Sequence record: NC_005859.1
From: Escherichia phage T5
Direction: 5' to 3' (one strand)
DNA length: 64,000 nt
How positions within the stretch are numbered: the stretch's first letter is position 1; each line of letters starts with the position of its first letter. The translations under genes and the position numbers were made by a program. The notes below the pieces were generated by a model that was given only the letters and a program-made list of their open reading frames with translations, was not told where the DNA came from and made no database searches. Below are positions 1,795 to 64,000 of this stretch, one piece after another.

Positions 1795-4581
1795 GTGTTT
1801 TCTATCCTCCAAGGTCACGCCGGATTTTCTCGTGATTTAGCAACAGGTATTTGGCGAGAAATCAAAGCGGAAGATTATACCTTTGCCAAGCGATTCTCGA
1901 AAGAGCATCCAGAAGGTAAACCAGCTTCTATGCCCTTCAAATTTGATGTAATAGAAGAGCACGACCCACAAAGCCTTGCCGAAATGTTACCCCTCATGAG
2001 ACGTTTAACGTCTGACCCTCATATCGTTGCGGTGCGAGGTCGATGTCTCGCACCTAAAAATAATGTGCGACGTAAGAAAGGTAACTTTAATGTATCTAAT
2101 CCTAGTAATATTATTGCTATGGACGTGGATGGTATCCTAGATACCGGTGGGTATGACAAATTTAATCTTGTTGGTATGGCCCGCCACATTATTAAGATGT
2201 TGAATAGTATTAGTGAGGATATGTTTCCTCTTGATGCAGGGTTTATTGCTCATGCATCGTCTTCGGCTGGGCTAAAACCAGGTATCCGAATGCACTTAAT
2301 GCTAGAATCTAACGTCAAGGTAACTCAGGGTCAGCTAAAGTTCTTATTTACATCTATCAACGATAGTAGTAAGCAAAAATTTGGTTTTGATATTGCCGAC
2401 CTAGCTTATTATTCATCTGTCCAGCTCCACTATTTTGCCGACCCCTTATTTAGCGATGGTATTGTTGATCCGTTTAAAGCGGAGAGTAAGCCACGTCTGG
2501 TGTATGTTAAAGGTTCGAAAGTAAATTTGCCCAATAATCTGGTTGACTATGAAACAACTAGAGGGGAGTTTAAGGAAGAGTTTTATTCTTTACTTGATCA
2601 AATTAAAGGCAAAAAGATTGCTTCTGATAAAGTAGAAGAAACCATCAGCGAGTTAGAAGAGGCTGATGATGGAGTGTATTTGCGTATTATCCCCAAACTA
2701 TACCATAGAGCATTAGAGGATGGTGTTGATTTTGCATGGCTAGAACGTGAGATTAAACCAGCTTTATCTGAATATATTGCAACTAAAGATAACAGTCGTA
2801 ATATTCAAGATTACTTTAATAACGGTCGTAAGCAGGCTCTCAAAGCGTTTGTTAATAATTCTAAACGTGAGATTCCATTAAATCTGAAAGGTGTTCCACT
2901 TAAGAAATTAGAAGTGGATTCTCCACCAGAAGTTCCATACCTGAAGATTAACATTGTGCCCCCAAAAGGCCATATAACATTTGTTAAGGCAAGTCTTGGT
3001 ACTGGTAAAACTACGGCAGTAACTAAATGGCTGGACGCAGGTGTTCTTCCAGGCAACTTTTTAGCAGTTACAAATACTAGAGCACTGGTATCTTCAAATG
3101 CCAAGAAATTTAGTGCAGGACAATACGATAAGTCTGTAGATATGCTCAACTTTAAACGTGGAGCTATCGATCGTATGTCCACAACTATTCACTCTTTGCA
3201 TAAGTTCAAAAGTTTTATTGGGCAAATAGACACCATTTTTATTGATGAATGTGACGCTGTAATGAATGACCTATTATTCGCCCCTGTTGTTAAACAACGT
3301 CGCGAGTGTATTCAAGTTCTACGTGACATCCTTATGACAGCTAAGACTGTAATCTTATCCGATGGTGATATTAGTGCTGAGACGATTGAAGCATATGGTT
3401 CTCTAATTGATTTTGATAAACCAGTAGCATTTTATAATCATCACCGTAAAATGCTGTCAAAAGCACACGCTTATGAGTTTCCTGATGAATCCAGTATTTG
3501 GGTTGCACTTCAGACTTCTCTAGAGATGGGTGAGAAATCTATTCTAGTATCTGATTGTGGCCCGGATGAGCTGAATGAGAAGGGTATGGCACTGCGTCGT
3601 AATACGGGTGCGTTAGTTAAGGAAATCCATTCAAACTCCACCTCAGATGTGGATATTCGACGTATTCTGGATTATACAACTAATGAGCTAATTGATCAAC
3701 AAATTGATTGCTTATTATGTAGTCCATCCGTAACGAGTGGCGTTGACTTTAACTATTTCGATAATGTGTTTGTTATTACTAGAACCAGTAATCAAGCGCC
3801 AAACATGCGTTTCCAAGCAATCAGGCGCGACCGTGGTGCCCAGAACATCTATTATTTTATTGATAAATCTACGAGTGGATTCTCTGCAGGTTCTGAGCAA
3901 TATAATATTGATGAAGGTTGGCTGGAGTTAGCACAGCAATTATACGCACGTCGTAGAGAGCTGGAATCTAGAAACTATACTAGTACCTTACGTTATTATT
4001 TGCTTGATCAGGGTGCAACTATTGATATTTTCAGCGAAAGCTGGGGAACTATTGAAGGTGCTGGTAAAGAATATACAGAAGAGCGAATCAAAGCTATTCT
4101 GCATTCAACTCCAGATTATTGTGCCCCACGTCATGCAGATGCATATGAAGCTAAACTACTTCTTGTTCGCTATTATCATCTTGAGTCTATTAAAGATGTA
4201 ACAGTTGAGCATGTCGAACAATATATCAAAGATAAACCGAATGATCGAGCTGCATTCTTCCATAAGATGCACGAGATGTTCTGGGAAGATATTAAGAAGT
4301 GTTCAAATGTGACCATTAAACCATTCATAGAGGCTCTGAAAGGTAAGAAGAAAGACTTCTTCCTTAAAACAGGTCAGAGTGCCAACCCAAAATATGCTAG
4401 AATGTATCTTGGTATGATGGGTATTGGTAAGGATATGAACACTGAAAATATTGTAGACTGGTACAGAACCTATTGTAAAATCGAGTGTATGCCAATTCCT
4501 TTCAAATTCATGACAGAGGAAGAGAGGGCTATGGCAGAAGAAGTAATGTCCGAACTTGGAGCAACTAATGAAGATGCATAA
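1795..4581 (+). CDS. large P-loop ATPase, putative replication/origin-binding helicase-like protein
   Basis: 928-aa ORF, GTG start with RBS aggag; Walker A LGTGKTT; Walker-B-like FIDECD. Confidence 0.7.
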   Translation: MFSILQGHAGFSRDLATGIWREIKAEDYTFAKRFSKEHPEGKPASMPFKFDVIEEHDPQSLAEMLPLMRRLTSDPHIVAVRGRCLAPKNNVRRKKGNFNVSNPSNIIAMDVDGILDTGGYDKFNLVGMARHIIKMLNSISEDMFPLDAGFIAHASSSAGLKPGIRMHLMLESNVKVTQGQLKFLFTSINDSSKQKFGFDIADLAYYSSVQLHYFADPLFSDGIVDPFKAESKPRLVYVKGSKVNLPNNLVDYETTRGEFKEEFYSLLDQIKGKKIASDKVEETISELEEADDGVYLRIIPKLYHRALEDGVDFAWLEREIKPALSEYIATKDNSRNIQDYFNNGRKQALKAFVNNSKREIPLNLKGVPLKKLEVDSPPEVPYLKINIVPPKGHITFVKASLGTGKTTAVTKWLDAGVLPGNFLAVTNTRALVSSNAKKFSAGQYDKSVDMLNFKRGAIDRMSTTIHSLHKFKSFIGQIDTIFIDECDAVMNDLLFAPVVKQRRECIQVLRDILMTAKTVILSDGDISAETIEAYGSLIDFDKPVAFYNHHRKMLSKAHAYEFPDESSIWVALQTSLEMGEKSILVSDCGPDELNEKGMALRRNTGALVKEIHSNSTSDVDIRRILDYTTNELIDQQIDCLLCSPSVTSGVDFNYFDNVFVITRTSNQAPNMRFQAIRRDRGAQNIYYFIDKSTSGFSAGSEQYNIDEGWLELAQQLYARRRELESRNYTSTLRYYLLDQGATIDIFSESWGTIEGAGKEYTEERIKAILHSTPDYCAPRHADAYEAKLLLVRYYHLESIKDVTVEHVEQYIKDKPNDRAAFFHKMHEMFWEDIKKCSNVTIKPFIEALKGKKKDFFLKTGQSANPKYARMYLGMMGIGKDMNTENIVDWYRTYCKIECMPIPFKFMTEEERAMAEEVMSELGATNEDA

Positions 4582-5086
4582 ACCAATGCCTCCTATGGCA
4601 TTTATCCTAGAAAAGCTTAGGTATGACGAAAGTACCGGGGACTTAATTTGGTTATCTGGCCCAAGGAAGGGAAAGGTGGCGGGCTCCAAAATGAAAACTG
4701 GAAGACAGTTAGAGTTTACGATAAATGGGGAGCGGACAGCTTACTTAGCCCATAGAATAATCTGGTTTATAAAGACAGGCGAAGATCCTGGGGATAAAAC
4801 TATCGACCACAAAGACGGTGATAGTTTAAACAACTTGTGGGATAATTTACGTAAGGCTACCTATTCCGAAAATGGAAAGAATAAGAAGTGTTCTACTAAT
4901 TCTACCGGATTCACTGGAGTTGTAAAACGAGGTAATAGATATATGGCCTACGCTTACTGCGAGGGAAAGCAGCATATTTTTGGTAGACGAGATACCCCGG
5001 AAGAAGCCCATCAGCTATACCTTAGGGGAGTTAAAGAACTGTTTGGTGAATTTAATCCCTCGGAGAGATATGACAGTGAAGAATAA
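4556..5086 (+). CDS. HNH homing endonuclease with AP2-like DNA-binding domain
   Basis: 176 aa; AHRIIW...IDHKDGDSLNN..NLR.AT..EN HNH motif; C-terminal TGFTGV..RGNRYMAY AP2-like segment; start overlaps preceding gene. Confidence 0.75.
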   Translation: MEQLMKMHKPMPPMAFILEKLRYDESTGDLIWLSGPRKGKVAGSKMKTGRQLEFTINGERTAYLAHRIIWFIKTGEDPGDKTIDHKDGDSLNNLWDNLRKATYSENGKNKKCSTNSTGFTGVVKRGNRYMAYAYCEGKQHIFGRRDTPEEAHQLYLRGVKELFGEFNPSERYDSEE

Positions 5087-5303
5087 AAAATGGGAAACAA
5101 GGAAGTTTCCAGTAAAAGAACGTAAAGTTCCTGTTTATGATACTTCGGAGAAGCTATGTAGGGTGGTACCGCACAGATTAGCTGGCATCCCTAACATATC
5201 CGAATGGTTACTTAAACAACGGAGGACTAGCGTATCCCTTCGCATAGGGTTTGAGTTAGATAAAGTATATGCTGAACTTTCTTCTTTGCTCAAAGAATCA
5301 TAA
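5070..5303 (+). CDS. hypothetical small protein
   Basis: ATG overlapping HNH stop, RBS ggagaga; longer upstream start at 4980 would overlap HNH coding. Confidence 0.3.
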   Translation: MTVKNKKWETRKFPVKERKVPVYDTSEKLCRVVPHRLAGIPNISEWLLKQRRTSVSLRIGFELDKVYAELSSLLKES

Positions 5304-5312
5304 AAAATTTAT

Positions 5313-5341
5313 TTGCTTTCAGGAAAATTTTTCTGTATAAT
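5313..5341 (+). promoter_or_regulatory. T5 early promoter, sequence matches PN25
   Basis: -35 TTGCTT 5313-5318, 17-bp spacer, -10 TATAAT 5336-5341, AT-rich upstream and ATAAATTTGAGAGAGGAG downstream; identical to my memory of PN25. Confidence 0.85.
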
Positions 5342-5371
5342 AGATTCATAAATTTGAGAGAGGAGTTAAAT

Positions 5372-6076
5372 ATGGCTGGTTCTCGCAGAAAGAAACATAT
5401 CCATGAAATCCCGGATGAAGTCTTTAAAAAAGTTATAGAGCATCTGGAAAACGGTGGTACTAAGAAAGCAGCATGTGAAATGCTCGGCGTATCATCCAAT
5501 CCAACTATGGAAAGGATGATTGAAGAGTGGCAAGACCGCCAGATTCAAGTTGCCGAAATGAAGAAAAAGAAACGTGGTACACTCATTGAAGGTATTGAGT
5601 TGGCCAACGTTATTGAACAGTATCTATCTGGCGATTCTTTCGAAGAGATTGCCGATCGTAATTACCGCTCTGTAGCAATGGTTAAATCTGTTCTGGAACG
5701 CTATGGTGCTCTGCTTCGTTTGAACGATATTGTAGATCCATTGAATCCACCAATTATTCCTGATGATGCTGTAGCAGAAGAATTTGAGGTAGGTGAGCTT
5801 GTTTGGGTTCCTGGATACCAGTGTATTGGTGAAATCAAAAAAGCAATGGATAACCCTGTTGGTTGTTACCGTGTTTGGCTTCTATCAGAAGGCAAACAAC
5901 AGAACGTTCATTATATGAATTATGAGCTGGCCTCTGTTAAACACCTGGAAAAGTTAGGGGTTGATGTAAAATCTCTGGGGTATAAATGGACTCGGGAAGA
6001 AGTCATTACGTTGATTAACGAAGCTGTTAAGGCCGCCTTGAAACTTGATAAAGAAAAAGGAAAACGCCGTGAGTAG
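5372..6076 (+). CDS. hypothetical protein with probable N-terminal helix-turn-helix
   Basis: ATG at 5372 sits 6 nt after RBS gagaggag and downstream of the PN25 start site; the track start 5354 lies at the transcription start. Confidence 0.7.
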   Translation: MAGSRRKKHIHEIPDEVFKKVIEHLENGGTKKAACEMLGVSSNPTMERMIEEWQDRQIQVAEMKKKKRGTLIEGIELANVIEQYLSGDSFEEIADRNYRSVAMVKSVLERYGALLRLNDIVDPLNPPIIPDDAVAEEFEVGELVWVPGYQCIGEIKKAMDNPVGCYRVWLLSEGKQQNVHYMNYELASVKHLEKLGVDVKSLGYKWTREEVITLINEAVKAALKLDKEKGKRRE

Positions 6077-6320
6077 ACTAACTGATTTACTTAAAGATGG
6101 GGAAGTAAAAACACTATATCGTAGAAGCTGGGATAACGATAATAACGGCTTAGTGTTACTAACTTTAGATGCTGACTCGGATGTAGCTACTCAGCATACC
6201 TGGGTAGCCGGTAATTATCCATATAGCGAGGTTGTTTCATTAACAGTATGCGAAGCTATTGCAGACGATTGGGAGGTTGCCAGCATTGAGGGTATGCTCG
6301 CTGTTGGCCTGGTGGAGTAA
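6045..6320 (+). CDS. hypothetical protein
   Basis: 91-aa ORF overlapping upstream gene; true start may be GTG near 6070. Confidence 0.45.
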   Translation: MIKKKENAVSRLTDLLKDGEVKTLYRRSWDNDNNGLVLLTLDADSDVATQHTWVAGNYPYSEVVSLTVCEAIADDWEVASIEGMLAVGLVE

Positions 6321-6337
6321 CTACTTAAAAATTTCAG

Positions 6338-6366
6338 TTGCTTAATCCTACAATTCTTGATATAAT
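6338..6366 (+). promoter_or_regulatory. sigma70-type early promoter
   Basis: -35 TTGCTT, 17-bp spacer, -10 TATAAT. Confidence 0.6.
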
Positions 6367-6423
6367 ATTCTCATAGTTTGAAAGAACTATTCTGTTTTAT
6401 TCTTAATTAAGGAAATATAAAAT

Positions 6424-6834
6424 ATGACTACTCCAACTCAGTGGACTGATGAACTGTTCGAAAAAATGTCTTCCGAATACGTTGCTCGTATGGAGCAATT
6501 CCCAGAGGATGAACGTCCGGGTGTTAGCATGGAAATTGTTAGCGAAATTGCCCAGGAAAATGGTGTAACTCCGAACGGTTTTCGTATGAAGCTGACTAAA
6601 GCAGGTTTGTATATTAAGAAAGCTGCTGGTTCTACTTCTAAATCTAGCGCATCTACTGGAGAAAAAGCTTCCGGTGGTTCTCGTACCTCCAAAGCTCAAG
6701 CCCACGCCGACCTTCGCGCAGCATTCTCTGATGCTGGCTTAGCACCAGATTTTCTGGATGATGCAATTATCGACAAACTGACCGGTAAAGCGGCTGCTCA
6801 TCTGGCAGAAGCAATCCGAGCTATCACTAAGTAA
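6424..6834 (+). CDS. hypothetical protein, probably abundant
   Basis: 136-aa ORF with E. coli-preferred codons (ctg, cgt, ggt); promoter plus RBS aaggaaa upstream. Confidence 0.65.
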   Translation: MTTPTQWTDELFEKMSSEYVARMEQFPEDERPGVSMEIVSEIAQENGVTPNGFRMKLTKAGLYIKKAAGSTSKSSASTGEKASGGSRTSKAQAHADLRAAFSDAGLAPDFLDDAIIDKLTGKAAAHLAEAIRAITK

Positions 6835-8787: not shown

Positions 8788-9567
8788 ATGAAAATCGAAA
8801 TTCCAACACAATGTCCCTCTTGTGGTTCTAAGCTAGATCTTGTCAACGGACAATTATTCTGTCGTAATAAGTCCAACTGTCCAGCGCAATCAAGTAAGTT
8901 AATTGAGAACTTCTGTACAAAAATGAAGTTAAAGGGCTTTGGCCCGAAAACTATTGAGAAGCTGGAGCTGACGAAGATTTCAGAACTATTTTACCTAACC
9001 GAAGAAGATTTGGTTAGAGCCGTGGGTAGCAAGGTTGCCGCTAAGTTAATTAGCGAATTAAATACTAAAGTTCGCGGAGACATTGACTTTGGTTCAGTTC
9101 TCGGTTCTTTAGGAATCCCTCTAATTGGAGAGGTTGCAGCAAAGAAATTATCCCAAAATTGCACTAGCTTTCAAGATGTGAAGGCTGACGGCAAGGCTGG
9201 AGAAAACTATAAAGCCTGGCTAAATTCCCCACAAGGCAAGGATGTAATCGAATTACCGTGGAAATTCTCAAAGGGTATTAAGGGTGCTAAAGCTGAGGTC
9301 ATCATCACTGATGGTCTAGTAGCCCAGCCAAATGGAATCACGGTGTGTATTACCGGATCTTTGCAAGATTTTGCAAATCGAACGGATGCAACAAACTATT
9401 TAGAAGGTCTAGGATATACGGTTAAGAAATCCGTTACCAAAGACGTCAAATACCTAATCTGTGAGGATGAATCGAAGCGTTCTTCCTCATCTTATAAGAA
9501 AGCCGAAACGAATGGGATAGAAATCCTGTCGATTAAAGAACTATTGGAGAAAAATAATAATGTCTAA
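8788..9567 (+). CDS. NAD-dependent DNA ligase, C-terminal part (Zn finger, HhH, BRCT-like)
   Basis: Cys4 motif CPSCGS...CRNKSNCPAQ typical of LigA zinc finger; separate ORF about 200 bp after the N-terminal part. Confidence 0.75.
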   Translation: MKIEIPTQCPSCGSKLDLVNGQLFCRNKSNCPAQSSKLIENFCTKMKLKGFGPKTIEKLELTKISELFYLTEEDLVRAVGSKVAAKLISELNTKVRGDIDFGSVLGSLGIPLIGEVAAKKLSQNCTSFQDVKADGKAGENYKAWLNSPQGKDVIELPWKFSKGIKGAKAEVIITDGLVAQPNGITVCITGSLQDFANRTDATNYLEGLGYTVKKSVTKDVKYLICEDESKRSSSSYKKAETNGIEILSIKELLEKNNNV

Positions 9568-10327
9568 ACTGAACTGGAACGTAGAAGGTGTAACCGAGTC
9601 TCTGAAAGCAAAAGCCACTGCTCTGGGTGTTGATGTAATCTCTCAAGAACAAGTAGCTGCTATCGCTGCTGAACTGGCTGCTGAAACTGGCAAAGACGTT
9701 ACCGCTCGCTCTGTTGGCTCTAAGCTGCGTAAAGAAGGTTTCGAAGTACAGAAAGCTAACGAAGTACAGAAATCCCCGTGGACTCCTGAGCAGGAAGCTG
9801 AACTGGTTGATTTCCTGAACGCTCATGCTGGTCAGTATACTTATGCTGAAATCGCTGCTGCTGTAGCTGGTGGTCAATTTGGTGCTAAGCAGGTACAGGG
9901 TAAGATCCTGAGTCTGGAAATGACAGCATCTGTTAAGCCGACCGAAAAAGCTGCCGCTGTTCGTTCCTTCACTCCGGATGAAGAAACTGACTTTGTTAAT
10001 CAGGTTGTTGCTGGTGCTACTATTGAAGCTATCGCTGCTCACTTCGGTCGCAATATTAAGCAGATCCGTGGTAAAGCTCTGAGTCTGCTTCGTGAAGGTC
10101 GTATCGCGGCTATGCCGGTACAGGAAACTTCAAGTGCTAAAACTCGTGAAGATCTGCTAGAAGGTCTGGATCTGGTTAACATGACCGTTGCTGAGATCGC
10201 TGAGAAAACTGGTAAGTCTGAGCGTGGTGTTAAATCTATGCTGTCTCGTCGTGGTCTGGTTGCTAAGGACTATGATGGTGCCGCTAAGCGTGCTAAACTG
10301 GATGCAAAAGCTGCGGCTGCTGAATAA
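9560..10327 (+). CDS. hypothetical abundant protein with internal repeated HTH-like modules
   Basis: 255 aa; strongly optimised codon usage; repeated ~45-aa units (TPEQEAELVDF / TPDEETDFVNQ / MTVAEIAEKTGKSERGVKSML). Confidence 0.7.
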   Translation: MSKLNWNVEGVTESLKAKATALGVDVISQEQVAAIAAELAAETGKDVTARSVGSKLRKEGFEVQKANEVQKSPWTPEQEAELVDFLNAHAGQYTYAEIAAAVAGGQFGAKQVQGKILSLEMTASVKPTEKAAAVRSFTPDEETDFVNQVVAGATIEAIAAHFGRNIKQIRGKALSLLREGRIAAMPVQETSSAKTREDLLEGLDLVNMTVAEIAEKTGKSERGVKSMLSRRGLVAKDYDGAAKRAKLDAKAAAAE

Positions 10328-55486: not shown

Positions 55487-57157
55487 TTACGCAAAGAATT
55501 TACCATTCTTAAAGTCAATCAAAGTGCGTTGACCGTTTGCATAGGTAATAATATGCGTTTGAGTCCAGCTAGACGCGCCAACGTTGTAACCCATGTCCAG
55601 ACTACCAGTCACGCCAGCGGTATAAACGCCGCCGTAAATGCTGGCGGTGTGGGTGTGTCCGGTGTTTAATTTGCCCAATTTCTTAAACTGTTTCGGGTTG
55701 CCACGGCTCCCGTTAATGCCGTTGTGACCGTGTACGCCGCATTCAATGCCTGCAATCTTGAAAGATTGGTCAGTGGTCAGGAAAATGGCGTTAAATTCAC
55801 AGCCTGCAACCTTGCGCAGCGCATAATCAAGCACGTTAAAAGTATCGTCTTTTTCTGCAATAGCTCCATAAATCGCAGCATTCAGGCGGTGATATAGTTC
55901 CGCGTTTGCTGGGTCGTCTTTAATGTTAGCATTACGATCATCTAACCAGCGGGATAGCGCCAGATCATGATTAGATTCAACAATGATTGTTTGAGAAAAA
56001 TCACGCTCCATTGATTCCAGTACGCGCCCCGTATCGATAAGATCATCTAATACCTTATCACGTCCGGCGGCATATTGTTTCGCTAGGAATACGCCAGATG
56101 CGCGGTTGTGATGGTTGCGTGATGTAAAATCATGCACGTCGTGTACAAACTGATATTTTGGTTTAAGAATATCAACAAGCCCGTAGGTGTCACCATGCCC
56201 CCAAGACGCAGCGGCGCACTCCTCATCTAATTTTTCAGCGTGAATGTCGCCATATTGTAAACCTAAAACGTGCCCCGTTGTTTCATAACATCCGGCAGGA
56301 GTGGCGCAAGTATTCAAATCATAAAACACGCCGCTCTCGTCCATCGTTTCAAGCTGGCGCACAAAAAACTCACCGTCCTCGTCAAACTCAACAATAAGCG
56401 CACCGAAGTTATGCAGCGCCTCGGCCTTTTGTCCTGCTTTCTGCTGGATGTAATTTTTTAGCGTTGCCGTTCCGGTTGAATACATACGGCGCACAATTTC
56501 ACCTTTTAAAGCTGGCACGCTTTCGGCGGTGATTTTAGCCGCTCCAATTGCTAGACCTTCAAGATTCAGCGCGGTTGCAGTTTCAGCGAATCCAGAAAGC
56601 GGATAATCTGCGGTGGGTAAAACGTTAATTTCAGCCATGAAAGCAAATCGGCGATTATTTAAAAACACGTTTTTATTGCAGATATATTTGTCAAATGCGG
56701 AATCGTATCTGATACCGTCGGCGCCCTCGCCATTTTGAAAACCGTTTTTGTTATAGATAAACTTGCTAACCAGCAAATCAGCGCCGATAAATTGGGCGTA
56801 TTGTTCAAGTGAGGCTAAAAAGTTTTTATGCGGGAACGTATTATTCTGAATCGATGTAATAATAAAGCGTTTACCTTGTTTTACTTCCCATTGCTCAACC
56901 GTGCTAGAAACAATCCCCGCCGCTTCTGGGCGCTCATCGTTTTTAATGGCTTTTGCTACTTTCGCCGCTTTCGGTTTCGCTGGTTTATTTGCTTCCAGCC
57001 AGTCACAAATTGCGGTAGAGTGTTTTGTTGTATCGTAAACCATTTTTGAAATATCGTCGCAAACTTCCAATTTAGTAGCGCGCAGACGTTTACCGTAGAA
57101 ATTAAAGTCAGCGGCCATTTTCAGGATAACGGTTTGTTTTTCTGCGGAAATAACCAT
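55487..57157 (-). CDS. A1: A1-like pre-early protein with metallophosphoesterase domain
   Basis: 556 aa, same length as T5 A1; calcineurin-like motifs GDIH, GDTYG, ESNHD, GHNG, HTHT in C-terminal half. Confidence 0.75.
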   Translation of the reverse strand: MVISAEKQTVILKMAADFNFYGKRLRATKLEVCDDISKMVYDTTKHSTAICDWLEANKPAKPKAAKVAKAIKNDERPEAAGIVSSTVEQWEVKQGKRFIITSIQNNTFPHKNFLASLEQYAQFIGADLLVSKFIYNKNGFQNGEGADGIRYDSAFDKYICNKNVFLNNRRFAFMAEINVLPTADYPLSGFAETATALNLEGLAIGAAKITAESVPALKGEIVRRMYSTGTATLKNYIQQKAGQKAEALHNFGALIVEFDEDGEFFVRQLETMDESGVFYDLNTCATPAGCYETTGHVLGLQYGDIHAEKLDEECAAASWGHGDTYGLVDILKPKYQFVHDVHDFTSRNHHNRASGVFLAKQYAAGRDKVLDDLIDTGRVLESMERDFSQTIIVESNHDLALSRWLDDRNANIKDDPANAELYHRLNAAIYGAIAEKDDTFNVLDYALRKVAGCEFNAIFLTTDQSFKIAGIECGVHGHNGINGSRGNPKQFKKLGKLNTGHTHTASIYGGVYTAGVTGSLDMGYNVGASSWTQTHIITYANGQRTLIDFKNGKFFA

Positions 57158-57253
57158 AATAATAAAACTCCATTAAAGGGATTAAAAAACGTTTGTTATT
57201 GGCAATATTGCCAAATATAACGCCTTGAATAATAGGCGTTATAATTTGCAACA

Positions 57254-57451
57254 TTAATTTAAAGGCATAAGGCTAGAACTAACACCACAAGCAACGGCGG
57301 CAATAAAACAAATCAGACCTAAACGCTTTGCTAACTTAGATTTACGTTTAAAATAATACGAATCTAAATCATTTTGAAAATAAGCGAACAATAACGAGGC
57401 CGCCATAATAAACAAGCCTAGAATGAGGGATTCAGTAGGGTAAAAGATCAT
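57254..57451 (-). CDS. small membrane protein
   Basis: 65 aa with two hydrophobic helices. Confidence 0.45.
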   Translation of the reverse strand: MIFYPTESLILGLFIMAASLLFAYFQNDLDSYYFKRKSKLAKRLGLICFIAAVACGVSSSLMPLN

Positions 57452-57507
57452 TTTAAAACTCCAGTCAAAGGGAAATTATAGTGGGGAATATTCCCCACTA
57501 ATTAAAT

Positions 57508-57915
57508 TTATTCGCCTGCGGCTTGTTTTACTTCATCGGCAACGCCTAACAGTTGCGCCACGGCGTCCAGCGTTTCCAATTTTGCACTTTCCAGTGATGC
57601 CAGATCGTCAGCGTCTTTGATAATACCGGAATCGATGGCATGTTTTGCAATCACACGCACGTAGTGCGCTTTGCGGATAGAACTGCCGCCGCCAACCTTG
57701 CGAGGTTTATCGCTTTTCTGATACGCTTTCGCGCTGGTCAATTTTGAGCGAACAGACACGGGAGAAGCCGCGCCAACTGCTTTTGCAATCTCTTTTAAAC
57801 CGTCGCTATTTGCGAAATCTAAACCGTTTTCATTAATTAACTGCTGGTACATGGAAACAGCTTTCTGAGTGTTTTCTTCATTCCAAGCGAATTTTGCGGT
57901 TTTAGCGTTAGTCAT
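57508..57915 (-). CDS. A2: A2-like pre-early DNA-binding protein
   Basis: 135-aa ORF immediately after A1 in transcription order; size and position match T5 A2. Confidence 0.65.
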   Translation of the reverse strand: MTNAKTAKFAWNEENTQKAVSMYQQLINENGLDFANSDGLKEIAKAVGAASPVSVRSKLTSAKAYQKSDKPRKVGGGSSIRKAHYVRVIAKHAIDSGIIKDADDLASLESAKLETLDAVAQLLGVADEVKQAAGE

Positions 57916-58010
57916 GATGTAACTCCTGTTTATTTAATTTAAGGGATAAGATTAACATAATGTTAATCGTTATATCCCCCGAACTACTGGGGGATATAAA
58001 AGTAACACTA

Positions 58011-58262
58011 TTACGCTACGGCTTCCCATTTTTCGTTACGCTGGGCAACCTTTACAACGTCGCCGGATTTAACCCGAACGTTGTAAACAGTTTTTCCGTT
58101 GTTACTCCGTTCCGTTTCAGCGTATACCGCATCAATTACATCAAACGGCATAAGCGCCGCGCCTTTAATGCGTTCGGTTTTTCCGGTTACCTCATCCGTT
58201 TTAGTAACGAAAGGGATAAAAACGGATTGACCAATTTTTGGCGCAGTAGTAACGTTTTGCAT
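58011..58262 (-). CDS. hypothetical protein
   Basis: 83-aa ORF; GC-richer codon usage like the A1/A2 block. Confidence 0.5.
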   Translation of the reverse strand: MQNVTTAPKIGQSVFIPFVTKTDEVTGKTERIKGAALMPFDVIDAVYAETERSNNGKTVYNVRVKSGDVVKVAQRNEKWEAVA

Positions 58263-58495
58263 AATATAAACTCCAGTTTATTAAGGGGGATTGTTCCGCA
58301 TTACCTGCTGTAAAAGTAGTGGCAGGTAATAAGCAACAATCCGCTCGCCAATATAATCAATTTAAAGAACTCCACTCAGGCCGCTATATCCCAGTTAGGG
58401 GGCGGGACACATTATGGTAAGTGCCGACCGTCATATTTTATCAAGTTATCGCTCTCATCGAACTGGGTACATCTTAAAGCCTATCGGCTAGGGTG

Positions 58496-58699
58496 TCAAA
58501 CTATTTTTTGCAGTTTTTTATGATTTTCTTTCAAGTCAATCATAATGTTTCGCCAGATCATTTCCAGACCTTGCTGGCGGCCTTTCTTGTACTGCCTAAA
58601 TCGATATTTTACCGATTGCTGGGCTATTGTCAACAATTTTTTAGTAGTACCATCTAATTTTTTAGCTGGTTTACCAGTGATCAATAAAGTTTGTTTCAT
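58496..58699 (-). CDS. hypothetical basic small protein
   Basis: 67-aa Lys/Arg-rich ORF in an otherwise non-coding stretch. Confidence 0.3.
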   Translation of the reverse strand: MKQTLLITGKPAKKLDGTTKKLLTIAQQSVKYRFRQYKKGRQQGLEMIWRNIMIDLKENHKKLQKIV

Positions 58700-59191
58700 A
58701 TCGTCGATTCCTTATAATATATAAGTTTACCGCCGATAGACTTTAAGATGTACCCAATTTTTAAAGAGCGTGGCGGTAAACTTCCCGCCGTGTAGTTCGT
58801 CATTGCCGCCCTACGAGATAAATAATAGGGGATACCCAAAAATGGCGCAACCTTATTTTTGTAAAGAAACGTAAAGAAGGCAACACGTCCGGCGCTCACC
58901 TAAGTTTAAAGGAAACGGGCGCGCGAATACCATAAAACCTAGCAGGTTGGCAAGTAATTTTTTCCTTTATATTTGCCTTGCCCTAGTTGACAAATCTTAG
59001 AAAGCTCGTGGTGACGATAAACGGGTTATCCCCTTATGATGGGATGCCTGAAAAATTTACCGCGTCAGAAAGCGTTTTAGGCGGCTTATTTTCGATTTAA
59101 CAAATATTTAACAAAAGCAAAATTGAAAAATAGTTGGAAAAGATATTGACTTTTAAAAATCAAGACTAAACGAGTTATTTTATAAAATTAA

Positions 59192-59710
59192 TTAATTGAC
59201 AATTCCAAATTCAGCTTTTTTAGTTTCTACCCATAATAATAACTCTTGTAAATCATAACCTGATTTACTAACACTTTTGTTACTAGTAGGATCTTTAACT
59301 ATAGCGCGCAAATAGTTTCTTCCGTTATTATCAACTCTAGAACCATTATAATAGATATGCTTAGGCAACTTATTAGCACGCTTATAATCTTTCTTGTTAT
59401 TCATATTCTGCTTATGGTCTACTAAGCGAAGATTATTAATGTTATTATTAGCACGGTTACGATCATTATGATCGATTGTTAGATTGCTATCAATCTCACC
59501 ATTAAATAATACCCATATTATTCTATGCACTGCGTATTGTTCGCCTGCTAACTTTACTCGATAGTAACCTGTGTTACTATAATGCCCTGCAATATCACCC
59601 ACCTTACTATTACCTTTCTGTACTTTCCATCTTAGAAATGATGGGGATGTTTCATCATAATAAAAGTTATCATTAGCAAGCGAATAATCTATATCTTTAA
59701 ATAGACCCAT
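59192..59710 (-). CDS. HNH homing endonuclease with AP2-like domain
   Basis: 172 aa; AVHRIIW...IDHNDRNRANNNINNLR...HKQN HNH motif; third member of the family at 4556 and 11864. Confidence 0.7.
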   Translation of the reverse strand: MGLFKDIDYSLANDNFYYDETSPSFLRWKVQKGNSKVGDIAGHYSNTGYYRVKLAGEQYAVHRIIWVLFNGEIDSNLTIDHNDRNRANNNINNLRLVDHKQNMNNKKDYKRANKLPKHIYYNGSRVDNNGRNYLRAIVKDPTSNKSVSKSGYDLQELLLWVETKKAEFGIVN

Positions 59711-59876
59711 TGTTATAGTTTCCTTATGTTATTAATTTAATCTCTATTATATTATATCAAAACCATTAGCAAACTACCTAATGAGTTTTTCAGGTTTAAT
59801 TAGCAGACTCATAATCACTTTAAAATCCTATTAGCCAACTAACTATATTTTGTTATATAATAACTGCATAAATTAG

Positions 59877-60010
59877 TTAGTGAGAAACACTATCATTTAA
59901 GTTATCCACAGCCTTATACATTTTGTAAATTAACTTGACACAATAGGAAGGCTTTATAGCACTTTTACACAGACTTATCCACAGGTTATTCCACTGTATA
60001 AATATACAGG
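59877..60010. repeat. left arm of ~130-bp imperfect inverted repeat, with DnaA boxes and 16-bp palindrome
   Basis: TTATCCACA at 59903-59911 and 59975-59983; palindrome ctgtataaatatacag 59994-60009; reverse complement aligns by eye with 63192-63320. Confidence 0.65.
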
Positions 60011-60275
60011 GTAAATGGAAAACATATTATAATGATGCCCAAAATAAGCGGCCTAAAACGCTTTCTAACGAGCAAAACGCTATAGGGTAATATTAAAGTA
60101 AAGCCTCAACGCGTCGCCCTGGTGGCTTCGCCGTGTTTTGCTCTTTACTATACCGCTGCGCGGTTAGCATAAAACTAGGCGCTAGGCAAGGAAAATAAAA
60201 AGGTAAAATAATATTTGCCTATGCTAGAAAATTACCTTTATCATTCACTCACCGATTAACGAGGGAGGCCAACAA

Positions 60276-61286
60276 ATGCGGCTATATAAACCAGATAACG
60301 CAACCGTCTTAAAGGGCGCCTTGCGCAACCTGCTGGATGGTAGCAGGACAACCAGCATTAAACATTTTATTAACAAGGCTGAAACTATTCACCAAAACTT
60401 TTTTAATGATTATGATGCCTATGATATGGATAGTTTTCTACCCCTATATAAGCAGGGGGCAACGATTATCTTATATAATCGTGATTGCCATATCTTTACG
60501 GGCAGGGGAGCGGGGCCGGATACTGATTTTATTGTTGCGCAGGGTAATAATATCGTTGCGTATCATAGCAATTCAGGCCGTCAATCATTTAATATAAATA
60601 ATTTTGAGCTTGTTGGGCTTGAATTAATAAACGGACTTTCTAGCCTTGAGGGATTTTTAGATGTTATCTGGAAGTATTTATCTGCTGGATGGCATAGACC
60701 TGATAGTGATGGATCTCAATATACGGCTGTAATGGCTTTTGATGGCGACGGTAATTTTTTATTACCATCGGAATTATATCCGTATGTATATAATGAGCTA
60801 GTACAAGAAGCGGGTTTTATTTTCTGGAAAGATGAGAATCAGATCATTGACAACACGGAAAAACATGCTGTAAATTCTAACACTCAAAGCGTTAACACTC
60901 AAATCACTGAAAACAAAGGAAAAAATGCCATGACCAAGATCGCTAATATCGTTGCCGCTAATAAATCCGCCGTTGTAAATGCTGCAAAACTGGAAGCGGG
61001 CAAAATTGCATTAACTCAAATCACGAAAGTAGCGGCTAAAAAAGCACCATTTATGATTAAAGGTTATATTGATACGCCTATTGGTCGGGTAGTTATTGCT
61101 AACCTGCTGAGCGTAGCGGTTGACCAGTACGCCCCTAGCAACCAAAAGGCGAAAGCGGTAGCGGGTGCAGCTATGGAAGCGGCTATGCTAGAAATGGTGC
61201 AAAGTTTTAACATCGCTGAAATGATTGATGAAATGGTGAAAGGTATTGATATTTCTACTTTTACCGTTAACACCGAAAGCGAGTAA
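60276..61286 (+). CDS. hypothetical protein (336 aa), first gene of inverted-repeat-bounded cassette
   Basis: RBS gagggagg; mixed alpha/beta N-terminal domain, Ala-rich helical C-terminus. Confidence 0.65.
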   Translation: MRLYKPDNATVLKGALRNLLDGSRTTSIKHFINKAETIHQNFFNDYDAYDMDSFLPLYKQGATIILYNRDCHIFTGRGAGPDTDFIVAQGNNIVAYHSNSGRQSFNINNFELVGLELINGLSSLEGFLDVIWKYLSAGWHRPDSDGSQYTAVMAFDGDGNFLLPSELYPYVYNELVQEAGFIFWKDENQIIDNTEKHAVNSNTQSVNTQITENKGKNAMTKIANIVAANKSAVVNAAKLEAGKIALTQITKVAAKKAPFMIKGYIDTPIGRVVIANLLSVAVDQYAPSNQKAKAVAGAAMEAAMLEMVQSFNIAEMIDEMVKGIDISTFTVNTESE

Positions 61287-61314
61287 TAATTAACCTAATG
61301 TAAAGTTTTGTAAA

Positions 61315-61340
61315 GGTCGCCATAATCGGCGGCCTTTTTT
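61315..61340 (+). terminator. possible terminator/attenuator
   Basis: short GC stem (tcgcc/ggcgg) followed by CCTTTTTTG. Confidence 0.35.
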
Positions 61341-61404
61341 GTTATAATGCCTTTACACCGTTTGAGGACGGTTGAAAATTTTCCCAAAATTTTGGAGGCT
61401 TAAA

Positions 61405-61635
61405 ATGGTTGCTTATTCTTCTTCTGACGCTCTTTTCACTGGAAAAGGCTGGGTATCAAATCGCTGGATCATTCAAGAAATGGTGCAGGAGTTCGGCATT
61501 GCTAAAACTTACACTACCATTCAGGCGCTTTATGATAATGATCAAATCGATCAGCAAACGGCGGGCTTTTTGCTGGATACCCTGAAAGCGGAACACTGTA
61601 CTAAAAAACAAGCCGCCAAAATTGTTTTAATGTAA
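61405..61635 (+). CDS. hypothetical protein
   Basis: 76 aa from ATG with RBS ggagg 6 nt upstream (track start 61372 is TTG). Confidence 0.55.
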   Translation: MVAYSSSDALFTGKGWVSNRWIIQEMVQEFGIAKTYTTIQALYDNDQIDQQTAGFLLDTLKAEHCTKKQAAKIVLM

Positions 61636-61684
61636 TTAATAACGGGGCGTTACTTTCGCCCCACTAACTAGGGGAGTATTACAA

Positions 61685-61849
61685 ATGGTTATTTTTCGAG
61701 CTATTCTGGCAGGTATCTTGGGCGCTATTCTGACCCTTTTTGCTACCGCTTACGGTATTCAAGATTCTTATTGTGGTTTAGTAAATACTAAACCTATGGT
61801 TATTATTGGCGCGGGTATCGCTGTATTTTCTTATCTGCTGGGCTGCATG
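61685..61849 (+). CDS. small membrane protein (54 aa)
   Basis: hand-translated MVIFRAILAGILGAILTLFATAYG...; RBS gggag; not in ORF track. Confidence 0.35.
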
Positions 61850-61866
61850 AATAAAGGAGAATAAAA

Positions 61867-62079
61867 ATGATCCGCAACGTTTCTCTTGCTCGTTCAAAGG
61901 GTTTTAAGCTGGTGGATGTTAACACATTCGAGCGGGAAGATTGTAAAATCGAATATGTAGCACGTAATAAAAACGCCTTTCGTGTTACAGAAAAGAAATT
62001 TGATAAGCGCGGCAACGTGATAGCTGAAACGGTTAAACATTTTGCCACCTTTTACGCGGCTTTTCGTGGAGTGTTATAA
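61867..62079 (+). CDS. hypothetical protein
   Basis: 70-aa ORF, RBS aaaggaga. Confidence 0.55.
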   Translation: MIRNVSLARSKGFKLVDVNTFEREDCKIEYVARNKNAFRVTEKKFDKRGNVIAETVKHFATFYAAFRGVL

Positions 62080-62080
62080 A

Positions 62081-62425
62081 ATGGTAATTTATGAAGGCAA
62101 TCGCTTTGTTGCTATTTGCCGACCGGGATTATTAGCAAACTACTTAAATCAGGTGTCACCTGAATATAAAGGCGTCATTAATATTTATGAGGGCAAGGCG
62201 CATTATAAGATTAATGCGGTCGTTGCCCGTGAATTAGCATTTCAATTTTTGACTTTCGCATCTTGTGATATTCAGGTCATGGGTGAAGCGTTAATTGCAG
62301 AAAATGAAGATGATTTTATTAATATCTTCCGCAAGGTATACACCGAGCGCCTGATAATGAAAGGCGCATATATTCAGTCAACTGCGGAAAGTATTGAAAC
62401 AGCTTTCAGAAAGGTGGCGCAATGA
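62081..62425 (+). CDS. hypothetical protein
   Basis: 114 aa from ATG 62081 (RBS ggag), 1 nt after upstream stop. Confidence 0.55.
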   Translation: MVIYEGNRFVAICRPGLLANYLNQVSPEYKGVINIYEGKAHYKINAVVARELAFQFLTFASCDIQVMGEALIAENEDDFINIFRKVYTERLIMKGAYIQSTAESIETAFRKVAQ

Positions 62426-62440
62426 AGCTATATATTTTCG

Positions 62441-62719
62441 TTGGTAATGTTGAGGCTGCGAATGATTCCGCTGGTGGCGATAACGTTCGCCACTATTGGC
62501 AAAAATATATTTACTAGGGTTATTATGATTACACTGATTTGCGTTAAAGCCGAAGGCGACACGATAGCGCGAGAAGGGCAAAAATATAAAGCCCAAAAAG
62601 ATCAATTACTCAAAACAATTGAGCGTTACAAAATACCCGATCTCAAGTATTCCGTAGTAGGACGCGATGGGATTCTAAGGGCGACACTTGAGAACGCTAT
62701 CTTTGAGATAGTCAACTAA
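62441..62719 (+). CDS. hypothetical protein (start uncertain)
   Basis: track ORF begins with TTG; internal ATG at 62525 would give 64 aa. Confidence 0.35.
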   Translation: MVMLRLRMIPLVAITFATIGKNIFTRVIMITLICVKAEGDTIAREGQKYKAQKDQLLKTIERYKIPDLKYSVVGRDGILRATLENAIFEIVN

Positions 62720-62734
62720 TAACGGGGCGTTATT

Positions 62735-62938
62735 ATGAGCAATAAAATTATTGTGACCAAAACTACCACAATGGTAGACGTTTTTTATGTGCCCGATACG
62801 CCGGAGAATCGGGGAGCGGTCGAGCGGGGCGAGTATGATAGCGTTATTTATGATGCCGATGGTTATTATCAGCATTTGGTCGATTCCTACGGGGAAGAGG
62901 AGAAGATCACGCATCGATTACCCGAGGGGGATTTATGA
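62735..62938 (+). CDS. hypothetical acidic small protein
   Basis: 67-aa ORF. Confidence 0.5.
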   Translation: MSNKIIVTKTTTMVDVFYVPDTPENRGAVERGEYDSVIYDADGYYQHLVDSYGEEEKITHRLPEGDL

Positions 62939-63048
62939 AACGATGGTTTAATCACTGGTATAAACGGTTTTTAGTACGGCATCGCAAGTCTAGACAGCAA
63001 GATGATTGGCGGGAAATGGCAAAGCGTAACAATTGCCCACTTCTCTGA
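62935..63048 (+). CDS. small basic protein (37 aa)
   Basis: hand-translated MKRWFNHWYKRFLVRHRKSRQQDDWREMAKRNNCPLL; ATGA overlap with upstream stop; followed by terminator. Confidence 0.35.
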   Translation: MKRWFNHWYKRFLVRHRKSRQQDDWREMAKRNNCPLL

Positions 63049-63055
63049 TAACCGA

Positions 63056-63077
63056 CGGGGATCAGCTCCCCGTTTTT
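63056..63077 (+). terminator. rho-independent terminator closing the plus-strand cassette
   Basis: cgggga-tcagc-tccccg hairpin followed by TTTTT. Confidence 0.7.
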
Positions 63078-63191
63078 CACGCCTCCAGTTAAATCCCCCT
63101 TTGTTTTAGTATCCCCATCAAAATTAAACGCGTTAGAATGCGATCTAGGACGTTTTAGGCATATATTAGAATTATTCACTGCGTAGGAATA

Positions 63192-63320
63192 CTGTATAAA
63201 TATACAGTAGGATAACCTGGGGATAAGTCTGTTGATAACGCTTCAAAATGGCTAGGATTTTGTCAAGGCGAATCGTGCTGTTGATAAGTCTGTGGATAAC
63301 TTAAATAACAGTGTTTCTCA
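63192..63320. repeat. right arm of inverted repeat, with DnaA-box cluster and 16-bp palindrome
   Basis: palindrome ctgtataaatatacag 63192-63207; DnaA-box-like 9-mers (rc TTATCCACA at 63291-63299; variants at 63209-63239 and 63279-63287); tail cttaaataacagtgtttctcac mirrors the left arm. Confidence 0.65.
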
Positions 63321-63323
63321 CTT

Positions 63324-63480
63324 CCGTTTTTAAATACGAATCATTATCATTCGTATTCCGCTTTTTAAATGAGAATCATTCCGCTTTTTAAATGAGAATC
63401 ATTTCACTTCCTGAATAGTTCTCATTCCCTTTCTTAAATGAGAATCATTATCATTTGCATTTCACTTTTTAAATGAGATT
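63324..63480. repeat. array of ~22-bp direct repeats (CCGCTTTTTAAATGAGAATCATT)
   Basis: two perfect tandem copies 63358-63403 plus three degenerate copies; each holds the small dyad AATGA-n3-TCATT. Confidence 0.75.
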
Positions 63481-63509
63481 GATTCTCATTATCATTCGCA
63501 TTCAGGCGA

Positions 63510-63527
63510 GCAGGGCAATTGCCCTGC
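63510..63527. other. perfect 18-bp palindrome
   Basis: gcagggcaattgccctgc followed by gcttttg. Confidence 0.7.
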
Positions 63528-63533
63528 GCTTTT

Positions 63534-63756
63534 GTGCAAATCCGACATTTGCCCCCATGGATTACGCGTGGGCGTGTATGTGCAAATCCGACAATTTTTG
63601 GTAGTGTGCGAATCCGACCCGAAAAATTTTTATAGTGTGCAAATCCGACAATGAATTTTCCCAAAAACTCCAGCAATCACGAACTGCGTTCGAATCCTGT
63701 GGAATTAGCTAGAGTATGTGCAAATCCGACATGTGTTGAGATGTGCGAATCCGACA
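63534..63756. repeat. iteron-like array: six copies of 14-bp GTGC(A/G)AATCCGAC(A/C)
   Basis: copies at 63534, 63580, 63606, 63646, 63718, 63743 with irregular 25-72 bp spacing, all same orientation, non-coding. Confidence 0.8.
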
Positions 63757-63892
63757 AGATTTTTGTGACTTCGATGGGAGGGTGTGTGATTGTATGGGTT
63801 TGAGGGGAAGATGAGAGAGCGAGAGAAATTTGGGAGGCTAGAAGGATATGGGCGCAGGATTGGTGCGGAGCACCTGATTTGCGGGGATTTTG

Positions 63893-63936
63893 GGGAAGAG
63901 TTGAGATAATTTGGGAAGATTTGAGATAGGTGCAGA
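63893..63936. repeat. purine-rich tandem repeat (TTTGGGGAAGAGTTGAGATA-like, 2 copies)
   Basis: within a strongly G+A-skewed plus-strand tract 63770-63940. Confidence 0.5.
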
Positions 63937-64000
63937 AAAAGTAAAATTTTATTAGCTAAAGGGGGCAAAATAGCTTGACAAGTGAAAATTTCTGTGGCTC

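Follow-up and report, generated by a model that had tools for sequence, protein, structure and literature searches.

The DNA analysed here is a 64,000-nucleotide stretch from Escherichia phage T5 (the window), in which positions 58263-59190 form a region of about 0.9 kb. It fills precisely the space between gene 007, whose start codon is at 58262, and the HNH endonuclease gene, whose stop codon is at 59192. Expression of the leftward pre-early operon is controlled from here; the region itself, its repeats, the gene hdi, and two promoters are already known. The new elements described here are putative BoxA leaders, recognized by comparing 34 distinct relatives and Pectobacterium phage My1; the leader preceding hdi surpasses hdi in conservation, and the BoxAs probably load host NusB-S10, thereby making pre-early transcription Rho-resistant. 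The segment 57900-60300 is 100% identical to positions 4119-6519 of T5 st0 (AY692264), the window coordinate being the T5 st0 coordinate plus 53781; the region is therefore T5 st0 4482-5409 and belongs to the terminal repeat constituting the first-step-transfer (FST) DNA. It is identical DNA to Repeat Region 1 of Davison (AY587007 4682-5310, 58464-59092 of the window), which holds the inverted repeats IRA, IRA', and IRB and both promoters, and whose repeats are described as conserved among T5-like phages and of unknown function (bioRxiv 10.1101/866236). Earlier descriptions of Repeat Region 1 call it 'untranslated' and give it no function, and their accessible texts contain no BoxA, leader hairpins, or promoter upstream of hdi. 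The annotation of this repeat region reportedly goes back to Wang in 2005 and is said to have been treated also by Davison in 2015 and 2020.

Within 58263-59190, only two open reading frames (ORFs) reach 60 aa, one at 58496-58699 and the other at 58696-58899; each is 67 aa long and lies on the minus strand. An earlier note on this DNA had counted the same two ORFs, called them dubious, and credited the region with almost no convincing coding capacity; the count was right, but the first ORF is hdi (T5.008, CDS T5p008), since its product is an exact match to AAU05161/AAS77055 and identical to T5.008, an experimentally characterized host division inhibitor that destabilizes FtsZ rings (PMC10714956). 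The Hdi protein is conserved out to Sugarlandvirus with a shared core motif QQGL-MIW-N-M and matches phrog_4718 over its full length (E=4.8e-39), and its gene has the third-position excess of divergence (15.4/12.0/24.8 summed over the three codon positions); hdi is a real gene. The second ORF, which holds the non-conserved T5.009, is considered below.

Two pre-early promoters overlap hdi, both on the minus strand. P-H22 (58591-58648, annotated in AY692264) lies inside the gene with its -35 box TTGACA at 58633-58628 and its -10 box TAAAAT at 58611-58606, whereas P-D/E20 (58445-58519, annotated in GenBank) overlaps the hdi 3' end with TTGACA at 58499-58494 and TAAGAT at 58476-58471. A consensus scan of the minus strand recovered both, as TTGACA-16-TAAAAT (11/12) and TTGACA-17-TAAGAT (10/12), and the hexamers of P-D/E20 are conserved in relatives. 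Position and sequence thus agree with the annotation, and for activity we rely on the literature, where both are experimentally characterized strong pre-early promoters overlapping hdi whose strength prevents cloning of the locus (bioRxiv 10.64898/2026.04.02.716235), and where P-H22 transcripts were found to be pre-early by in vivo primer extension (PMC7472727). From P-H22 and P-D/E20, the genes 007-A2-005-A1-003-002-dmp are transcribed leftward. Both promoters reportedly stem from the work of the Bujard laboratory. A transcriptome of T5 at transcription-start resolution was not found in the literature. The pre-early promoters suspected by the earlier note thus exist and were known beforehand, and the AT-rich promoter-like tracts that it pointed out do coincide with them; AT-richness as such is not special here, as GC content stays at 0.34-0.445 over 58200-59099 and drops to 0.23-0.31 only at the right edge, from about 59000.

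GenBank places the inverted repeats A and A' at about 58464-58488 and 58732-58756 and B at about 59067-59092. In our analysis, IRA (58450-58488) covers the P-D/E20 spacer, -10 box, and start region, and its 39 nt are 82% complementary to IRA' (58732-58770), so that the two arms bracket hdi. IRB (59056-59092) is 37 nt long and 86% complementary to IRB' (60041-60077), beyond the inserted HNH gene.

BoxA motifs in the pre-early leaders

We collected 44 loci from Tequintavirus, Epseptimavirus, Eos, and Sugarlandvirus, including duplicates of the same genomes, and used gene 007 as the anchor for aligning the 34 distinct sequences. Matches to the region were obtained in 458 phage records, and its deepest-conserved piece, 58753-58827, is retained at 97% identity over 75 nt in Sugarlandvirus, where its flanks are unalignable; a 141-nt query around this piece matched 533 records, mostly without annotation there, and an IMG/VR scan with the core 27-mer gave only 21 stretches, on contigs of 103-122 kb, which added little diversity. 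Across the 34 relatives, conservation of the unannotated stretch upstream of hdi exceeds that of the hdi coding sequence: in 20-nt steps, identity to T5 is 0.81-0.95 over 58691-58830 and 0.90 at 58851-58870, compared with 0.57-0.83 across hdi. Three blocks are fully invariant on the plus strand, namely AATTTTTAAAGAGC (58756-58769), TTTGTAAAGAA (58858-58868), and TTGACAAA (58987-58994), and most positions of GATAAATAATA (58817-58827) are invariant as well.

The most conserved block of the region is a match to BoxA. The gamma-proteobacterial BoxA consensus is GYTCTTTAANA, with a critical C at position 4 (Baniulyte et al. 2017). BoxA-1 (GCTCTTTAAAA, 58759-58769, minus strand) matches it at 11 of 11 positions and is one of only two perfect matches in the 64-kb window (0.72 expected), the other, at 43247, being antisense within an ORF and hence set aside. 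It is perfect, on the same strand, and at the homologous position in all 44 loci, with 100% column identity in the 34 aligned sequences. It also overlaps IRA', which extends 3' of it on the transcript. BoxA-2 (GTTCTTTAAAT, 58360-58370, minus strand) lies in the 5' untranslated region (UTR) of gene 007 and matches at 10 of 11 positions with C4 kept. Whereas BoxA-2 stands downstream of P-H22 and P-D/E20 and upstream of 007-A2-A1-dmp, the promoter serving BoxA-1 is predicted only.

Of the 44 loci, 15 that are among the more divergent have another perfect BoxA in the same orientation, located between hdi and 007. In an Epseptimavirus subset as well as in Eos and Sugarlandvirus, this perfect BoxA-2 follows the -10 box of the P-D/E20 homolog by about 20 nt, the Sugarlandvirus layout being TTGACA-17-TATTAT-agaatctcaataagcaacacc-GCTCTTTAAAAATTTGG; in T5, a structured insert of about 80 nt separates BoxA-2 from the promoter. 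Some copies are identical to the Escherichia coli rrnB leader, over the 18-mer ACTGCTCTTTAACAATTT in two loci (L034 and L036) and over the 15-mer GCTCTTTAACAATTT in Eos. The structured insert (58380-58465, minus strand) occurs in Tequintaviruses and is absent from Sugarlandvirus, Eos, and part of Epseptimavirus, and its stems appear by eye to be compensatory between T5 (GGCAC/GTGTC) and locus L019 (AGGTGATT/AATCATCCT). On the plus strand, a BoxA-like site before gene 011 (GCTCTTTACTA, 60140-60150, 10/11, after a small hairpin at 60120-60134) was rejected: it is never perfect and is probably non-functional, because its position 9 varies (C/G/T) and it is missing in many relatives.

On the minus strand, the conserved elements before hdi follow one another in the order CTTCTTTACGTTTCTTTACAAAAATAAGG, TTGCGC, a 17-nt spacer, TATTAT, TTATCTCGTAGGGCGGCA..., hairpin A, hairpin B, AC, and GCTCTTTAAAAATT. 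The second to fourth of these constitute a candidate hdi promoter (58822-58850) with a -35 box TTGCGC at 58850-58845 and a -10 box TATTAT at 58827-58822; both hexamers are nearly invariant, while the spacer varies in sequence and keeps a length of 16-17 nt. A variable spacer between conserved hexamers is what characterizes sigma-70 promoters, and we predict a promoter at this place. The conserved block upstream of it (CTTCTTTACGTTTCTTTACAAAAATAAGG, 58851-58878, minus strand) contains a pair of TTCTTTAC repeats spaced by one helical turn and, at about -38 to -46, an A-tract; it is a candidate UP-element-like sequence or regulator site. The A-tract occupies the usual place of UP elements, in which T5 promoters reportedly have one too. 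Farther upstream, TTGTCA-16-TATAAA (58966-58993, minus strand) may be a further promoter, although this prediction is weak; its plus-strand TTGACAAA is invariant, TTTATA is conserved, and the spacer is variable, and its hexamers resemble those of rrnB P1 (TTGTCA-16-TATAAT). The invariant plus-strand TTGACA within it (58988-58993) was considered as a rightward -35 box and rejected, as no -10-like hexamer stands at 16-18 nt in T5 or relatives, and the site reads better as the minus-strand TTGTCA-16-TATAAA. Likewise, a plus-strand promoter in IRA' mirroring P-D/E20 was discarded: the -10 box TAAGAT is present, with no -35 box at spacings of 12-18 nt. It is possible that transcription from the HNH promoter reads through into the BoxA-1 region.

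Two hairpins occupy the predicted hdi leader, both on the minus strand. Hairpin A (58792-58814) has the form GTAG...CTAC, and hairpin B (58772-58789), GGCGG-GAAGTTTA-CCGCC, ends 2 nt before BoxA-1 and is an analog of the boxB hairpin of rrn leaders. Hairpin B occurs in the compensatory variants GGTAAGG/CCTTACC, GGCAGG/CCTGCC, and GGCGGGG/CCCTGCC, also with loop insertions; in one relative (L018, IMGVR_UViG_2974579171), it is the exact reverse complement, GGCGGTAAACTTCCCGCC replacing GGCGGGAAGTTTACCGCC, with the stem preserved. Taken together, hairpins A and B have 86.7% of cells paired, three pairs changed on both sides, loop insertions of up to 36 nt, and a covariation score of 0.094 compared with 0.059 in shuffles (1/500). 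The stem of hairpin A, as an outer stem GTAGGGCGG/CCGCCCTAC (GTAGG/CCTAC), encloses a larger insert in one Sugarlandvirus locus (L042) and in My1. A 12-bp perfect complementarity between AAGTTTACCGCC and GGCGGTAAACTT (58723-58734/58772-58783) encloses BoxA-1 and competes with hairpin B; it is the minimum-energy fold in T5, is not retained in Sugarlandvirus or L018, and was set aside.

In the leader of gene 007, a long hairpin (58288-58342, minus strand) lies between BoxA-2 and the 007 ribosome-binding site (GGAG, 58274-58271). Its 21-nt arms (58288-58308/58322-58342) are 86% complementary and flank a 13-nt loop, and the minimum-energy fold predicted for the UTR includes this hairpin. Counted on this structure, seven pairs (26 cells) are changed on both sides, and covariation reaches 0.331 as opposed to 0.146 +/- 0.022 in shuffles (0/500) and at most 0.175 in slid controls. 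RNAalifold found compensatory changes in five of the seven pairs that it predicted; it recovered only these seven because the divergent rows are out of register. Our guess is that the long hairpin serves as a processing or stabilizing element. The earlier note had mentioned a hairpin near 58305, which proves to be real and larger than described, and had suggested a comparison of structures with related phages, in which the leader hairpins and the long hairpin indeed covary. Both leaders fold better than shuffled sequence (z = -2.6 and -2.3).

In several relatives, an extra small gene of about 52-63 aa (e.g., MQTIYNDHPATHDTIEKIEQW...) stands between the BoxA-1 leader and hdi (L029, L014, L031, L037, L038, and L003/L004/L039-L042), and in DT57C (L030) a different small gene takes the place of hdi. 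From both observations together it follows that the leader belongs with the head of the operon and not with hdi itself.

The pattern recurs in a more distant relative, Pectobacterium phage My1 (L047) of the subfamily Mccorquodalevirinae, whose 14-kb left end was scanned. It contains four perfect BoxAs, all on the gene strand and all intergenic, where 0.08 are expected and none of 200 shuffles reaches four. Three of the four lie just downstream of a promoter-like site. In one of these, a promoter, a GTAGG...CCTAC stem, and the BoxA are arranged as in T5 (CTTACAAATCTTTACAAATATGAGG-TTGCAG-17-TAATAT-TTATCCCGTAGG...CCTACACC-GCTCTTTAACA), and two others follow the promoters TTGACA-17-TATGAT and TTGCAA...TACTAT. 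The fourth (9451-9461, minus strand) immediately follows an intrinsic terminator, agcccctaattggggcttttttt, and precedes the My1_018 start codon by about 15 nt, an arrangement nearer to the repressive BoxA of suhB than to a leader antiterminator.

Predicted antitermination by host Nus factors

We propose that nascent BoxA RNA would bind host NusB-S10 just past the promoters, as it does at rrn operons and CRISPR leaders, and that NusB-S10 together with NusA, NusG, and SuhB would convert RNA polymerase to a Rho-resistant, processive form. Long pre-early transcripts with untranslated stretches of about 100-230 nt, such as the 233-nt gap between hdi and 007, would thus be protected from Rho and could be finished within the few minutes before second-step transfer. 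Outside hdi, the comparison with relatives indicates that the region consists of regulatory DNA and structured mRNA leaders and does not code for protein.

The closest parallel is the leader of rRNA operons. We read the E. coli rrnB P2 leader as TATTAT-gcacacccc-GCCGCtgagaaaaagcgaaGCGGC-AC-TGCTCTTTAACAATTTATCA, so that a -10 box TATTAT, a GC-rich hairpin, 'AC', and GCTCTTTAA follow one another in the same order in T5 and in rrnB P2; moreover, BoxA-1 is perfect to the consensus, and some relatives carry the rrn 15-18-mer including GCTCTTTAACAATTT. The arms IRA' and IRA bracket hdi in the way that the leader-trailer helix brackets 16S rRNA, although an rrn-like role for them is speculative. We know of no phage N protein that would be needed, as in rrn operons. 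Unlike an rrn operon, the T5 operon carries protein-coding mRNA instead of rRNA, no GU-rich element resembling boxC was seen in its leader, and the distance from -10 box to BoxA is 52 nt, as compared with 38 nt in rrnB P2.

The nut sites of phage lambda are likewise phage elements just downstream of an early promoter, and T5 CGCTCTTTAAAAATT equals the boxA plus spacer of nutL (CGCTCTTAAAAATT, within nutL read as CGCTCTTAAAAATTAAGCCCTGAAGAAGGGC) with one extra T. Read beside both systems, the T5 leader combines the rrn order and an rrn-type BoxA core with the nutL-type spacer AAAAATT. Unlike in lambda, the T5 hairpin is on the 5' side of BoxA-1, and a lambda-type boxB (about 15 nt with a GNRA-like pentaloop, 3' of boxA) is not found in T5: BoxA-1 is followed by IRA', and BoxA-2 by a 55-nt imperfect stem with a 13-nt loop that starts about 18 nt downstream. 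To our knowledge, T5 has no homolog of N, and the pre-early literature names none. T5 is a virulent phage unrelated to lambdoid phages.

A third precedent is the stand-alone BoxA, which occurs in the suhB 5' UTR and in the leaders of CRISPR arrays and is conserved across genera (Baniulyte 2017; Stringer 2020). The T5 motifs resemble these in being leader BoxAs outside an rrn or nut context, tied to Rho-dependent termination of poorly translated RNA, and differ in that suhB and CRISPR arrays are host loci and that the effect at suhB is repression, not read-through. In the literature searched, no stand-alone BoxA is described in a virulent phage, and no paper ties T5 or its relatives to BoxA, Nus factors, or pre-early antitermination; older subscription papers and Davison 2015 lay outside this search.

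Several points weigh against antitermination by these BoxAs. BoxA-2 has one mismatch in T5 and two in several Tequintaviruses (GTTCCTTAAAT), and may thus be weaker or decaying in this genus, and no conserved BoxA was found in the rightward pre-early operon. The candidate hdi promoter has a weak -35 box, its overall score of 8/12 is under the scan threshold, and it is not among the promoters reported by earlier workers. The covariation of hairpin B consists of few independent events (three pairs). Since BoxA-1 overlaps IRA', part of its conservation could serve the repeat, the more so as the partner arm in L031 and L033 carries its complement. Binding of Nus factors, initiation of transcription ahead of hdi, and Rho termination within the operon are all predictions from sequence. 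Finally, it is mainly Rho that rrn-type complexes counter; they are not known to overcome intrinsic terminators, to which the palindrome separating A2 from 005 probably belongs (see below).

Another explanation accepts the BoxAs as genuine NusB/S10 sites and makes them repressors in the manner of suhB, in which Nus binding near the ribosome-binding site would cut translation of the toxic hdi and 007 and permit Rho termination, so that expression is limited and read-through is not promoted. The suhB gene and a ParE-like toxin gene are repressed via a BoxA within about 50 nt of the start codon (Baniulyte et al. 2017), and the analogy extends to BoxA-1, which lies about 60 nt upstream of the ATG of the toxic hdi, and to the My1 BoxA close to a start codon. 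However, the perfect BoxA-2 of the distant relatives is 117-124 nt away from the 007 ATG with the large hairpin between them, several phages have another gene between BoxA-1 and hdi, and the arrangement that recurs, a promoter with a BoxA soon behind it, is the one known from rrn operons and CRISPR leaders. We therefore regard repression as an unlikely role for these sites.

Inverted repeats, small open reading frames, and neighboring sequences

The arms of IRA/IRA' change together in every lineage, including a change of the -10 box within IRA from TAAGAT to TAATAT (L037 and Eos) and the wholly different arms of Sugarlandvirus. This co-change could reflect selection on the RNA, for a helix that read-through transcripts would form and that is formally comparable to the leader-trailer helix of rRNA; it could also stem from a function at the DNA level or from gene conversion between the arms. 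A further explanation is that the invariant motif acts as DNA, as part of an IRA/IRA' cruciform, as a protein site (e.g., for A2), or as a copy of the P-D/E20 core, and that its likeness to BoxA is coincidental. IRA' begins at the BoxA-1 motif, the arms co-vary even across the -10 change, the exact BoxA complement is present in the partner arm of two loci (L031 and L033), and the conserved repeats reported by Davison have no assigned function. On the other hand, the partner arm of T5 and most relatives mismatches the AAAAAT part while the motif is still invariant; BoxA-2 and the four My1 BoxAs lie outside the repeat and yet follow the consensus perfectly (BoxA-2 in the distant relatives), all on the transcribed strand; and some copies agree fully with the rrnB leader over 15-18 nt. 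We consider a purely DNA-level role improbable.

It is quite improbable that the leader owes its conservation to a small protein or leader peptide, either T5.009 or one of the longer ORFs of 52-87 aa, translationally coupled to hdi via the ATGA overlap. T5.009 (58696-58803, minus strand, 35 aa) is annotated in AY543070 and in some relatives, matches YP_006837 exactly, and has a stop codon overlapping the hdi ATG; it corresponds to the last 35 codons of the second 67-aa ORF (58696-58899), which starts with GTG, is absent from the protein collection, and in part matches phrog_17446. In the Sugarlandvirus pzk-kv7, an ORF of similar length also ends over the start of the next gene. Nevertheless, the T5.009 ATG is lost in three lineages, a subset of Epseptimavirus (L034/L044/L035/L043/L037), Eos, and the Sugarlandvirus loci L041/L042; its divergence by codon position (5.1/3.2/5.4) has no third-position excess; insertions of 14-87 nt, several of them not a multiple of three, interrupt the frame in relatives and yet preserve the hairpins; and indels of 9-12 nt upstream break the longer frames called by some annotators. 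Furthermore, between genera with unalignable flanks, the first 16 codons keep even their synonymous sites, at 97% identity. Both T5.009 and the longer GTG ORF were thus rejected as genes on start codon loss, the lack of a codon-position signal, and frame-breaking indels, and T5.009 is probably not a gene. It is nonetheless listed among the '17 pre-early genes' without good support, and spurious small ORFs of this kind are annotated over the conserved leader in many genome records.

The earlier note had further offered a non-coding RNA or binding sites controlling first-step transfer. Such a free-standing small regulatory RNA, or sites halting DNA transfer, can be put aside as very improbable: the structures are conserved and covarying, the leaders fold better than shuffled sequence, and the repeats are shared by T5-like phages, but no terminator-like site was found by scanning 58263-59190, an Rfam search of 57000-64000 at E<=1 gave no match in it, the structures sit between mapped promoters and downstream ribosome-binding sites, and the injection stop signal (iss), expected close to the 7.9% nick in the right-hand end of the terminal repeat, has been annotated some 4 kb farther right, at T5 st0 9140-10144 (62921-63925 of the window), Repeat Region 1 being judged too far left for it (bioRxiv 10.1101/866236). 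What stands of the non-coding RNA is its structured part, in the form of covarying mRNA leaders with BoxA. Elsewhere in the searched interval, a weak match to STnc320, a Salmonella small RNA, at 61303-61355 (minus strand; 27.1 bits with a gathering score of 50, E=0.081) is probably due to chance.

To the right of the region, the HNH gene hegG (59192-59710, minus strand) is an insertion that separates Repeat Region 1 from Repeat Region 2 (bioRxiv 10.1101/866236); many relatives, e.g., HildyBeyeler (L027), have about 1.1 kb of uninterrupted non-coding DNA in this place. IRB/IRB' bracket the gene together with two DnaA-box repeats. These are direct repeats at 59902-59930 and 59975-60003, 73 nt apart, each beginning with TTATCCACA, the DnaA box consensus. 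These direct repeats correspond to IRC/IRD, which Davison linked to the injection stop. To the left, A2 and gene 005 are separated by a palindrome, TAGTGGGGAATATTCCCCACTA (57479-57500), which is perfect over its 22 nt and is followed by TAATTTCCCTTT on the gene strand. It resembles a weak terminator or attenuator inside the pre-early operon, and phage Stitch has it annotated as a terminator. The terminal repeat ends at T5 st0 9749 (63530 of the window); the window continues past this point into the annotated injection-stop region, and about 53.8 kb of other sequence lies ahead of the terminal repeat, so that the source seems to be an assembly with the repeat internal or collapsed.

Implications for T5 and the Demerecviridae

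A more far-reaching version of the antitermination proposal, which we put forward only tentatively and which may well prove wrong, is that the T5-like phages (Demerecviridae) copy the whole logic of the rrn leader at the start of their pre-early operon, with tandem promoters, a boxB-like hairpin, BoxA, and a long-range IRA'/IRA helix of leader-trailer type around hdi. The first polymerases on the injected DNA would then become fast, Rho-resistant complexes of the rrn type without any phage antiterminator protein, and the IRA'/IRA helix and the long hairpin would be processing or stabilizing sites of the RNase III type. Within only 8% of its genome, T5, a model phage for 70 years, carries pre-early genes that are rapidly expressed and later switched off. 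If BoxA-dependent antitermination in the pre-early leaders is true, T5 would draw on the Nus/SuhB antitermination machinery of its host from the very first minute after infection, and BoxA regulation, as established for rRNA operons, lambdoid phages, suhB, and CRISPR arrays, would extend to a family of virulent phages.

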